This document shows, in pieces, positions 20,583-23,074 of a stretch of DNA of 35,126 nucleotides. The notes under the pieces are model-generated. The model made no database searches. It was not told the DNA's origin and saw only the letters and a list, made by a program, of their open reading frames with translations. The first letter of the stretch is position 1, and every line of letters begins with the position of its first letter. The translations under genes and the position numbers were made by a program. Origin of the DNA: a virus (taxonomy: Duplodnaviria; Heunggongvirae; Uroviricota; Caudoviricetes); IMG/VR virus record IMGVR_UViG_2619619134_000012; one strand, 5' to 3'.

Positions 20583-22349
20583 ATGAACACGACACTGATC
20601 CCCGCAGACCTCGATCCCCGTCGGCAGGCCATGCTGCTGTACTTTCAGGGATACCGCGTAGCCCGCATTGCTGAAATGCTGGGCGAGAAAGTTGCAACCG
20701 TTCACAGCTGGAAGAAGCGCGACAAGTGGGGCGACTATGGGCCGCTGGATCAGATGCAGCTCACCACCGCCGCACGTTACTGCCAGCTCATTATGAAGGA
20801 GCAGAAAGAAGGGAAAGACTTCAAGGAAATTGACCTGCTGGCGCGCCAGTCAGAGCGCCACGCCCGGATCGGTAAATTTAACGATGGCGGGAACGAAGCA
20901 GACTTAAACCCGAACGTTGCCAACCGTAACAAAGGGCCGCGCCGCCAGCCCGAAAAGAATGTTTTCACCGATGAACAGACCGAAAAGCTGGAAGAAATCT
21001 TCCGCAACGGCATGTTTGAATATCAGCGCCACTGGTGGCAGGCAGGCGTAAAACACCGCATTCGCAACCTGCTTAAATCACGTCAGATTGGGGCAACATA
21101 CTTTTTTGCCCGCGAAGCGCTGATTGATGCCATCACCACCGGGCGCAACCAGATCTTCCTCTCAGCCAGTAAGGCGCAGGCGCACGTCTTTAAGCAGTAC
21201 ATCATCGACTTTGCAAAAGAGGTGGATGTTGAGCTGAAAGGCGACCCGATGACGCTCAGCAACGGCGCGTGCCTGTACTTCCTCGGCACCAACGCCCGCA
21301 CGGCGCAGAGCTACCACGGCAATCTGTACCTTGATGAATATTTCTGGATACCGAAATTCCAGGAGCTGCGCAAGGTTGCCTCCGGTATGGCCATTCACAA
21401 GAAATGGCGACAAACCTACTTCTCCACGCCGTCCAGCCTGACCCACAGCGCCTATCCGTTCTGGTCCGGCGCGCTGTTTAACCGGGGCCGTGCCAAAGCG
21501 GACAAGGTGGATATTGACCTGACCCACAGCAACCTTGCGCGCGGCCTGCTCTGCCCTGACGGACAGTACCGCCAGATCGTCACCGTGGAGGATGCGGTGC
21601 GCGGCGGCTGTAACTTGTTCGACCTCGACCAGCTGCGCATGGAGTACAGCCCGGACGAATACCAGAACCTGCTGATGTGCGAATTTATTGACGATCTGGC
21701 GTCAGTATTCCCGCTCAGCGAACTGCAGGCGTGCATGGTGGACAGCTGGGAAGTCTGGACCGATTTTCATGCTCTGGCGCTGCGCCCGTTTGGCTGGCGC
21801 GAAGTCTGGATCGGATACGACCCGGCGAAAGGCACGCAGAACGGTGACAGCGCCGGGTGCGTGGTGGTGGCACCGCCAACCGTGCCAGGCGGCAAGTTCC
21901 GCATTCTGGAGCGACACCAGTGGCGCGGGATGGACTTCCGCGCCCAGGCTGACGCCATTAAAAAACTGACACAGCAGTACAACGTGACCTATATCGGCAT
22001 CGACTCGACCGGCGTCGGTCACGGTGTCTACGAGAACGTGAAAGCGTTCTTTCCTGCCGTGCGGGAGTTTGTCTACAACCCCAACGTCAAAAACGCCCTG
22101 GTGCTCAAGGCCTACGACATCATCAGCCACCGCCGTCTGGAGTTTGACGCCGGGCATACCGACATTGCGCAGTCCTTTATGGCTATCCGCCGGGCCACCA
22201 CCGCCAGCGGCAACCGCCCAACCTATGAAGCCAGCCGCAGCGAAGAAGCCAGCCACGCAGATTTGGCCTGGGCAACGATGCACGCACTGTTTAACGAACC
22301 GCTGCAGGGCGAGGCCGCCAATACCAGCAACATTGTGGAGATTTTCTGA
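20583..22349 (+). CDS. P: Terminase large subunit (ATPase plus nuclease)
   Basis: 588-aa ORF with a lambda-gpA-type deviant Walker A candidate KSRQIGAT, Walker B LYLDE and a C-terminal nuclease region ([10 protein letters not shown]...[11 protein letters not shown]). Confidence 0.9.
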   Translation: [588 protein letters not shown]

Positions 22350-23074
22350 TGCACTCAACCCCAACTAACCTCATGACCACCGCCAGCCTGCCTGTAGATC
22401 GCCCTTTCTTTGCTTACCAGCATGAATGGAACAGCGGCGCACGCAGCAGAAACCGTGTGCTTACAAAAATGCGTCAGGCTGGCGCAGATTTCTTTTTCGC
22501 CTACGAAGCCCTGAACGATGCACTGCATACCGGACGCAACCAGATTTTTCTGGGCTGCACCCCGGCATCCGCCCTGACAGTCAAAACCTATATGTCAGCC
22601 TTTATAGATCAGGCTGCAGCCTGGACACACCTTGGAAAAATAAAATCAGGCAAAGCGCATCTGGAACTACCAAACGGTGCAGTCATTTATTTTATCGGGC
22701 CGGAAAGCCTCGCCGCCGCGCTCCATGGAAACGTCTACGTGTCAGAGTATGCCTGGGCGGACTCCCCGAAAAATATGATTGCGCTCGCCAAAAGCCTGTC
22801 CATGCACGCGCGCTATCACGCTACCTACTACACCACCCCAAGCCCCAGCCCGGAAGCATGGCGGGAATACAAGAAGCTGATTGCCCGCAACAGCACAACC
22901 AGCATGACCTTTACCGCTGATGACGCTGCAGCATCCGGGGCAACGCTCGCAACCGGAGCCGCGCTCTTTGATGATGAATGGCTGAATGACATGAAAAAAG
23001 AATTATCAGCAGCGGACTGGAGAATGTTGTTTATGTGCGAATGGCCCCAGTTTGACAAGGAGCAGATGGCATGA
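22349..23074 (+). CDS. Terminase-ATPase-domain-only paralogue (truncated, motif-degenerate terminase large-subunit-like protein)
   Basis: 241-aa ORF overlapping the P stop (TGATG) and the Q start (ATGA); aligns by eye with the ATPase core of the adjacent P protein ([29 protein letters not shown] vs [35 protein letters not shown] vs LLMCEF) but lacks the N-terminal and nuclease regions. Confidence 0.7.
   Translation: [241 protein letters not shown]

Follow-up and report, generated by a model that had tools for sequence, protein, structure and literature searches.

Between the terminase and portal genes of the viral DNA stretch recorded in IMG/VR as IMGVR_UViG_2619619134_000012 lies a gene for a stand-alone paralogue of the terminase large subunit (TerL) ATPase domain; the whole stretch, 35,126 nt long, is referred to below as the window. 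The 241-amino-acid (aa) product, hereafter the window protein, is a diverged member of the family labelled W in coliphage 186. The existence of W and its similarity to the terminase are already on record in GenBank. We have found no earlier description of how large the family is, of its gain and loss in the manner of a cassette, or of an exchange of Walker-motif residues that extends throughout a subfamily. Alongside its large terminase, this P2-like lineage carries a paralogue of the terminase motor domain that is maintained yet optional. We favour the reading that the W-family protein acts as an optional nucleotide-binding accessory of the packaging machinery; taken whole, and with its secure identity part counted in, this reading stands, in our judgement, evenly between right and wrong. 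The gene and its immediate setting are as follows.

20583..22349, + strand: TerL (homologue of P2 gpP and 186 Orf12), 588 aa, with Pfam domains Terminase_5, Terminase_6N and Terminase_6C; its motifs are Walker A K165-T172, Walker B G246-E252 and C-motif F280-S284
22337..22340, + strand: Shine-Dalgarno-like GGAG, 8 nt before the W-like ATG and within the 3' end of the TerL gene
22349..23074, + strand: W-like gene, stand-alone TerL ATPase-domain paralogue, 241 aa, ATG start
23057..23062, + strand: Shine-Dalgarno-like AAGGAG for the portal, 8 nt before the portal start and within the 3' end of the W-like gene
23071..24123, + strand: portal protein (P2 gpQ homologue), 350 aa, Pfam Phage_portal, phrog_68

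Direct reading of the sequence bore out a preliminary description of this DNA, which had reported a 241-aa open reading frame (ORF) between terminase and portal with overlapping stop and start codons at both ends. At the TGATG junction, the TerL stop codon TGA (22347-22349) shares 1 nt with the W-like ATG (22349-22351), and at the ATGA junction the W-like stop codon TGA (23072-23074) and the portal ATG (23071-23073) form a 4-nt overlap. The order TerL, W-type gene, portal, with overlapping or abutting stop and start codons, was found in all 20 loci examined, which were sampled from phages and prophages of Escherichia, Klebsiella, Leclercia, Pantoea, Buttiauxella, Limnobaculum, Yersinia, Erwinia and Salmonella and from metagenomes. 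This arrangement shows the gene to be built into the packaging operon, its translation probably coupled to that of TerL and portal. Third-position GC content (GC3) is 0.59 in the W-like gene and 0.74 and 0.71 in the TerL and portal genes, a codon composition unlike that of both coupled neighbours.

BLASTP of the window protein against the adjacent TerL gave 72 identities in 240 positions (30%; 37% of ungapped columns; E=6e-31), in an alignment spanning TerL residues 145-368 only. The earlier figure of roughly 40 percent identity was slightly high, and the reported match between the two ATPase cores, with 21 of 29 residues identical in one stretch and LLMCEF set against LFMCEW, was reproduced by direct comparison. 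Pfam matched Terminase_6N alone in the window protein (residues 42-232), neither Terminase_5 nor Terminase_6C being matched, and the C-terminus lies 9 residues beyond the LFMCEW lid motif. As first described, the protein thus lacks the N-terminal helix-turn-helix (HTH) domain and the C-terminal nuclease domain of TerL.

At the nucleotide level, similarity between the W-like and TerL genes is confined to one 80-nt stretch at 72.5%, which excludes an assembly duplication, a possibility that near-identity to the P gene would have signalled. Orthologues at 95% identity are moreover present in hundreds of independent assemblies and in one isolated phage. An assembly or annotation artefact, in the form of a spurious TerL duplication, has protein-level similarity to TerL in its favour and nothing more; we consider it refuted and give it virtually no credence. 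Origin as a recent fragment of the TerL of another phage was also considered and rejected, since no full-length TerL is more than 42% identical to the window protein.

An AlphaFold2 model built from a 128-sequence alignment (pLDDT 91.8, pTM 0.90) consists of a single ATPase domain; it was retained in place of a model from a 14-sequence alignment (pLDDT 61.5), which was discarded. The best structural matches of the model are the ATPase domains of large terminases, namely those of T4 gp17, P74-26, HK97, D6E, Sf6 and the Avs3-bound PhiV-1 terminase. The window protein is thus predicted to fold as a complete TerL ATPase domain, lid subdomain included, in agreement with the fold that had been anticipated. 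A profile search of PDB sequences gave no significant match, no NCBIfam model matched the window protein, and no defence-protein model of PADLOC-DB v2 was hit by the window protein, by 186 W or by P0082, a further stand-alone protein introduced below. The window protein is not a TerL: the TerL ATPase fold is present, and the nuclease domain and the canonical Walker residues are both absent. A W-type gene should therefore be annotated neither as "terminase large subunit" nor as a split or duplicated TerL; the NCBI pipeline names such proteins 'terminase large subunit domain-containing protein'.

The nucleotide-pocket motifs of the window protein are listed below, with the corresponding residues of TerL.

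22409..22420, + strand: Q-motif region (adenine-binding), F21-A-Y-Q24; Q24 is invariant in the W family, and the TerL Q is 97% conserved
22466..22489, + strand: deviant Walker A, K40-M-R-Q-A-G-A-D47; TerL has KSRQIGAT (165-172), so that the Mg-ligand Thr is replaced by Asp
22727..22747, + strand: Walker B, G127-N-V-Y-V-S132-E133; TerL has GNLYLDE (246-252), so that Asp is replaced by Ser, with the catalytic Glu retained
22832..22843, + strand: C-motif (coupling motif), T162-T-P-S165; T159, T162 and S165 are invariant in the W alignment, and TerL has STPS

Both substitutions noted in the preliminary description, the final T to D in Walker A and LYLDE to VYVSE in Walker B, were recovered when the motifs were set side by side (KSRQIGAT/KMRQAGAD and GNLYLDE/GNVYVSE). 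The W-family alignment contains 30 invariant columns, mostly in nucleotide-pocket motifs; these include F21, Y23 and Q24, R36, K40, R42, Q43, G45 and A46, G127, N128 and Y130, and T159, T162 and S165, with E133 nearly invariant.

We surveyed the Walker motifs in 179 classified sequences, comprising 103 stand-alone proteins and 76 full-length TerLs. Thr or Ser in Walker A together with Asp-Glu in Walker B was found in 76/76 TerLs, and Walker A Asp in 0/76. Among the stand-alone proteins, 76/103 carry Walker A Asp, and the Walker B Asp is gone in every one of these (76/76), replaced by Ser in 63, Gly in 6, Pro in 4, Ala in 2 and Leu in 1, with the Glu retained in 75/76. Canonical Walker residues persist in 17/103 stand-alone proteins, 186 W among them, and 10/103 have other Walker A/B changes, mostly with the catalytic Glu replaced; the states seen in these ten are Asn-Glu, Asp-Gln, Asp-Asp, Gln-Asp, Asp-Asn, Asp-His, and Asn with Asp-Glu. 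The combination of Walker A Thr to Asp with loss of the Walker B Asp thus defines a subfamily within W, and does not set its bearers outside the W clade. The Mg ion of P-loop NTPases is served by two residues, the Walker A Ser/Thr through its hydroxyl and the Walker B Asp, so the fixed change of Thr to Asp and Asp to Ser looks like the relocation of a carboxylate at the Mg site. Repeated independent origin of this exchange was considered, but the tree does not show it to have arisen more than once (support 0.35); the 76/76 association between the two changes may therefore represent a single inherited event.

Further losses distinguish these proteins from TerL. Residues that are 86-100% conserved in TerL have been lost in the W clade (S194-A-S196, Q199, N237, T240, H288, W294 and G296, the last three following the C-motif), and the branch of the window protein has lost the TerL D326-G-x-Y-R330 hairpin, the Arg of which is present in 63/64 TerLs. 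The window protein keeps the Q-motif, the Walker A Lys, Arg and Gly, the catalytic Glu and the C-motif. It would be expected to bind or handle nucleotide, but not to act as a DNA translocase alone. In comparison with the P2-type TerL gpP, the window protein is alike in its homologous ATPase domain, its fold and the motifs just named; it differs in having no HTH or nuclease domain, in the exchanged Mg-ligand pair, in the loss of S-A-S/Q, N/T and R330, in evolving several times faster and in being dispensable.

The assignment to the W family is drawn from comparison with annotated phages. In the 186 record, the 248-aa CDS NP_052250.1, which bears the label W and the note 'similar to Orf12', lies between Orf12, the P homologue, and Orf2, the Q homologue; PSP3 orf2/gp2 is noted as 'similar to 186 W', and EtG gp02 as 'similar to bacteriophage 186 W protein'. 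The window protein resembles these in position, stop/start overlaps, ATPase-only content and length, and groups with them in one clade. It differs from 186 W in being only 33-34% identical to it, and in having KMRQAGAD, VSE and no hairpin where 186 W keeps KSRQIGAT, LDE and a D-G-x-W-R hairpin. The original designation as an extra gene holds relative to P2 itself, but the gene is a named or annotated component in 186 (W), PSP3 and EtG. An ORF at this position is thus largely a standard named component of such phages, though only a minority of P2-like phages carry W.

A word-index search retrieved 55 clusters of 220-254-aa proteins, ranging from 95% down to 33% identity, from Salmonella, Citrobacter, Escherichia, Leclercia, Klebsiella, Phytobacter, Pantoea, Yersinia, Buttiauxella and Limnobaculum. 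A profile search of 1.8 billion representatives gave dozens more stand-alone proteins of 220-285 aa, and the family comprises more than 40 clusters at 50% identity in public data. Two Yersinia enterocolitica phages carry a 254-aa equivalent of W. The closest relative in the phage collection, at 95.4%, belongs to Yersinia phage vB_YpM_MLG42 (PP599993; MLG42 below), a phage isolate from the Fels-2 group. Neighbour joining of 17 paired loci and two W-less outgroups gave a tree in which every W-type protein was split from every TerL ATPase domain (bootstrap 1.0). In a larger tree, the window protein shared one clade with 186 W and the Yersinia proteins, other stand-alone proteins forming a grade towards TerL. 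In tblastn searches with the window protein, the best match in 186 and the Yersinia phages was the W-type CDS, not TerL.

Pairwise ratios of nonsynonymous (dN) to synonymous (dS) substitution for W are 0.10-0.31, and 0.14-0.31 within the window subfamily (informative pairs), so the W-like gene is maintained; one near-identical W pair with a handful of changes (dN/dS 0.62, dS 0.038) was left out. For the TerL ATPase domain of the same phages, dN/dS is 0.03-0.12, and the dN of W is 2-8 times that of this domain. Between the window and Klebsiella, the W proteins are 60% identical and the TerL ATPase domains 92%. Even where the proteins are only 33-46% identical, in at least 9 genera, the gene keeps its reading frame and its stop/start overlaps, and the product its length, which remains within 225-254 aa at identities as low as 33%. 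The gene is thus old and held under purifying selection, yet fast-evolving. The earlier proposal of an old, maintained duplication that is no assembly artefact is upheld by these ratios and by the nucleotide comparison above.

At a Buttiauxella metagenome locus, TerL groups with 186-type TerLs and the W-type protein with a different branch (meta44), consistent with exchange of the W cassette independently of TerL. In the record of Escherichia phage 500465-1 (locus 5001-6758), the W-like CDS is truncated, at 176 aa, and the portal is divided between two CDSs, which suggests frameshifts by sequencing error or a decaying prophage. P0082 is a 261-aa stand-alone TerL-ATPase protein with canonical Walker residues (GCA_009183585.1, contig WEJV01000022.1, locus coordinates 3501-4286). 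Its gene directly follows the replication gene gpA of a P2-like prophage, where it occupies the early-region cargo site; the TerL and portal genes of that prophage adjoin. This marks a second genomic location for ATPase-only terminase paralogues.

Comparison of closely related phages with and without W revealed that the gene is dispensable. MHG75, a Yersinia pestis phage isolated by plaque formation, is one of thirteen plaque-forming Eganvirus isolates (PMC11126057) and the one of them examined here. Its TerL differs from that of 186 at 7 of 589 residues (98.8% identity), and the two portals are 95.9% identical; MHG75 has no W, and its portal gene begins 2 nt past the TerL stop codon. Fels-2, the TerL of which is 95.9% identical to that of the window, likewise has P followed directly by Q. 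Among the matches listed, 11 other isolates of the thirteen-phage set each gave a single, TerL-level match to the window protein. The W gene is therefore optional, being present in some phages and absent from near-identical ones. Among 489 matching phage records, W occurs in about 11 distinct phages; of 5426 complete E. coli genomes, 21 carry the window type and 8 the 186 type, and at least 1265 have P/Q-like matches.

In both pairs, 186/MHG75 and window/Fels-2, nucleotide homology between the W-plus and the W-less phage breaks exactly at the TerL stop codon. It resumes inside the portal gene, after about 11-19 codons in the 186/MHG75 pair and after about 24 codons in the window/Fels-2 pair (near window position 23143; Fels-2 locus 21513-21585). 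The W gene thus behaves as a cassette exchanged by recombination, which takes along the variable, basic N-terminal tail of the portal (window 22349-23143). The cassette comes and goes between phages with terminases up to 98.8% identical, and its largest branch carries the fixed Mg-site exchange. No W-specific signature was seen in the portal N-terminus, W-plus and W-less portals both beginning with a variable basic tail, and no compensating TerL changes were evident in the W-less phage, the 7 differences between 186 and MHG75 being scattered. Such natural pairs (186 versus MHG75-type phages; the window prophage or MLG42 versus Fels-2) make the function of W directly testable.

One W-plus isolate is described with unusual particle dimensions. 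For MLG42, which carries a window-type gene (MHG75, the one other isolate looked at closely, being without W), the published head and tail measure 128 nm and 234 nm (PMC11126057, Table 1). The other 13 isolates have heads of about 60-70 nm and tails of 136-158 nm, and the MLG42 genome, at 31.2 kb, is similar in size to theirs; the dimensions may be a scale error.

The label W is ambiguous. GenBank U32222 attaches it both to the 248-aa CDS and to the portal CDS (186 locus 196-1961), and the MHG75 record names the portal the 'W gene' (MHG75 locus 3837-4883). In work of Hocking and Egan in J Virol in 1982, W was reportedly defined by amber mutants that block head formation; our argument does not rest on this. 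Because the portal shares the label, and because an amber codon in the W ORF would have a polar effect on the portal gene coupled to it, the amber phenotype classically ascribed to 186 W is not assignable to the ATPase-only ORF. A search of the papers available here for the function of 186 W or of any other W-family member found no functional study.

Recent work on phage sensing provides a concrete immune context for W. Isolated terminase ATPase domains strongly activate EcAvs2 and are sufficient for Upx (Evans et al., bioRxiv 10.64898/2026.04.30.721860). The T4 protein vs.8, which by description consists of a TerL-ATPase-like domain only and is encoded by a separate phage gene, is toxic with EcAvs2, that is, it activates it (Evans et al. 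2026, bioRxiv 10.64898/2026.04.30.721860). It is reported from T4-like phages, with conserved Walker A and B motifs; we liken it to W by description, and the kinship we claim is shared TerL ancestry only.

In the reading that we favour, translational coupling would yield W protein in a fixed ratio with TerL and portal. The protein would bind nucleotide without itself being a DNA translocase and would use surfaces of the ATPase domain to contact TerL and/or portal; as a dispensable accessory or regulator, it would adjust how the motor assembles or works. A functional analogy, with no sequence or fold relationship to the window protein, may be drawn with lambda gpFI-type factors, non-structural proteins that help terminase and prohead to meet and the need for which can be bypassed. 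The packaging regulator suggested in the preliminary description is possible in this form, but because near-identical phages do without W, any packaging role must be optional. Several points weigh against an accessory role in packaging. The link of W protein to TerL, portal or packaging, from which we infer that role, consists of gene position and homology. The motor of the W-less siblings works, so that a structural motor role is not required and any benefit must be conditional, and the classical amber phenotype, for the reasons given above, does not speak for this ORF. The fast evolution, patchy distribution and lower GC3 fit a conflict-type accessory equally well. Finally, the Thr to Asp and Asp to Ser exchange may abolish rather than preserve Mg-nucleotide binding.

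A role in conflict, in which W would shield monomeric TerL from Avs1-3 or Upx, counter P4-like satellites or hinder competing P2-like phages, is the main alternative, a tentative one to which we give real but lesser weight. Its presence and absence in near-identical phages, with clean cassette boundaries, would suit such a factor, as would its elevated dN relative to the TerL ATPase domain and the several ways in which catalytic residues have degenerated across the stand-alone proteins. The occurrence of the related ATPase-only P0082 in an early-region cargo site of another P2-like prophage points the same way; so does the coupling to TerL translation, which would give the 1:1 supply that a shield needs, and a P4-family integrase adjoins the prophage. 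However, TerL ATPase domains activate EcAvs2 and Upx and vs.8 activates EcAvs2, so a TerL mimic would be expected to trigger these systems, not to block them. A simple decoy, as entertained in the preliminary description, is therefore disfavoured, unless the altered Mg site lets W escape. The TerLs of the W-plus and W-less siblings 186 and MHG75 differ at only 7/589 residues, which leaves a poison model, with its need for a resistant cognate TerL, unsupported. The absence of a PADLOC match also tells against a conflict factor, as does the location of the gene beside TerL in 20/20 loci, only at the P-Q junction and not in known variable cargo sites, and no actual satellite was seen within the window. 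In one specific and rather improbable version, W would be a TerL mimic that docks on the ATP-site face of monomeric TerL like a ring neighbour, hiding it from Avs2, Avs3 and Upx until portal assembly, with the exchanged Mg site keeping W itself from recognition. If true, this would make W a phage counter-measure to terminase pattern recognition, gained and lost with the host immune repertoire.

We consider it unlikely that the gene is a decaying or selfish passenger, a functionless duplicated fragment caught between two essential coupled genes and on its way to loss. It is dispensable in nature and rare, its constraint is relaxed relative to TerL, its GC3 is below that of its neighbours and the phage 500465-1 copy is shortened. 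Against this, dN/dS is well below 1 in the informative comparisons, saturated ones included, and the pair at 0.62 reflects a handful of changes. The integrity of frame, length and overlaps across distant genera, the concentration of the best conservation in the active-site motifs and the breadth of the family in public data are likewise hard to reconcile with a passenger. An essential core subunit of the 186-type terminase, equivalent to the genetic head gene W, has the label of the 186 GenBank CDS to recommend it and, reportedly, the head-blocking amber mutants mentioned above. It is contradicted by natural W-less phages, above all by plaque-forming MHG75, in which the portal directly follows a TerL nearly identical to that of 186. 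Together with the double use of the label and the expected polarity of amber codons, this rules out a core subunit and leaves that explanation very improbable. The optional accessory of packaging is the reading that we retain.

The remaining genes identify the window prophage as of the 186/Fels-2 type, not the P2 type: a CI repressor, DinI, the replication endonuclease gpA and an integrase are all present in the window, and the annotation of an E. coli prophage at 94.6% identity names CI, CII, Fil, DinI, Dam and gpA. The following features lie beyond the portal gene.

24439-25383, - strand: three small genes between portal and gpA (P2-family cargo region), encoding a 96-aa ORF (no Pfam match), a DinI-family protein (24773-25006) and a 121-aa ORF (no credible match)
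32191-33216: the prophage's own integrase
33401..34774: P4-family integrase, 457 aa, with Arm-DNA-bind_3, Phage_int_M and Phage_integrase, directly after the prophage integrase

The 799-aa ORF beyond the portal region is the phage gpA (Phage_GPA, E=4e-130), not P4 alpha. The P4-type satellite placed next door in the preliminary description is thus not borne out by this ORF; what is seen is the P4-family integrase, about 10 kb from the W-like gene and the only P4-like element within the window, followed by IS1 InsA, which runs off the window edge (35126). The P4-family integrase and IS1 may be a remnant, or may belong to an island or satellite inserted in tandem at the attachment site of the prophage.

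The window TerL itself bears a localized cluster of changes. Relative to Fels-2 gpP, 15 of its 24 amino-acid differences fall in residues 133-185 (window 20979-21137), around the Q-motif and the Walker A helix, which suggests a recombination patch within the TerL ATPase domain at these residues.

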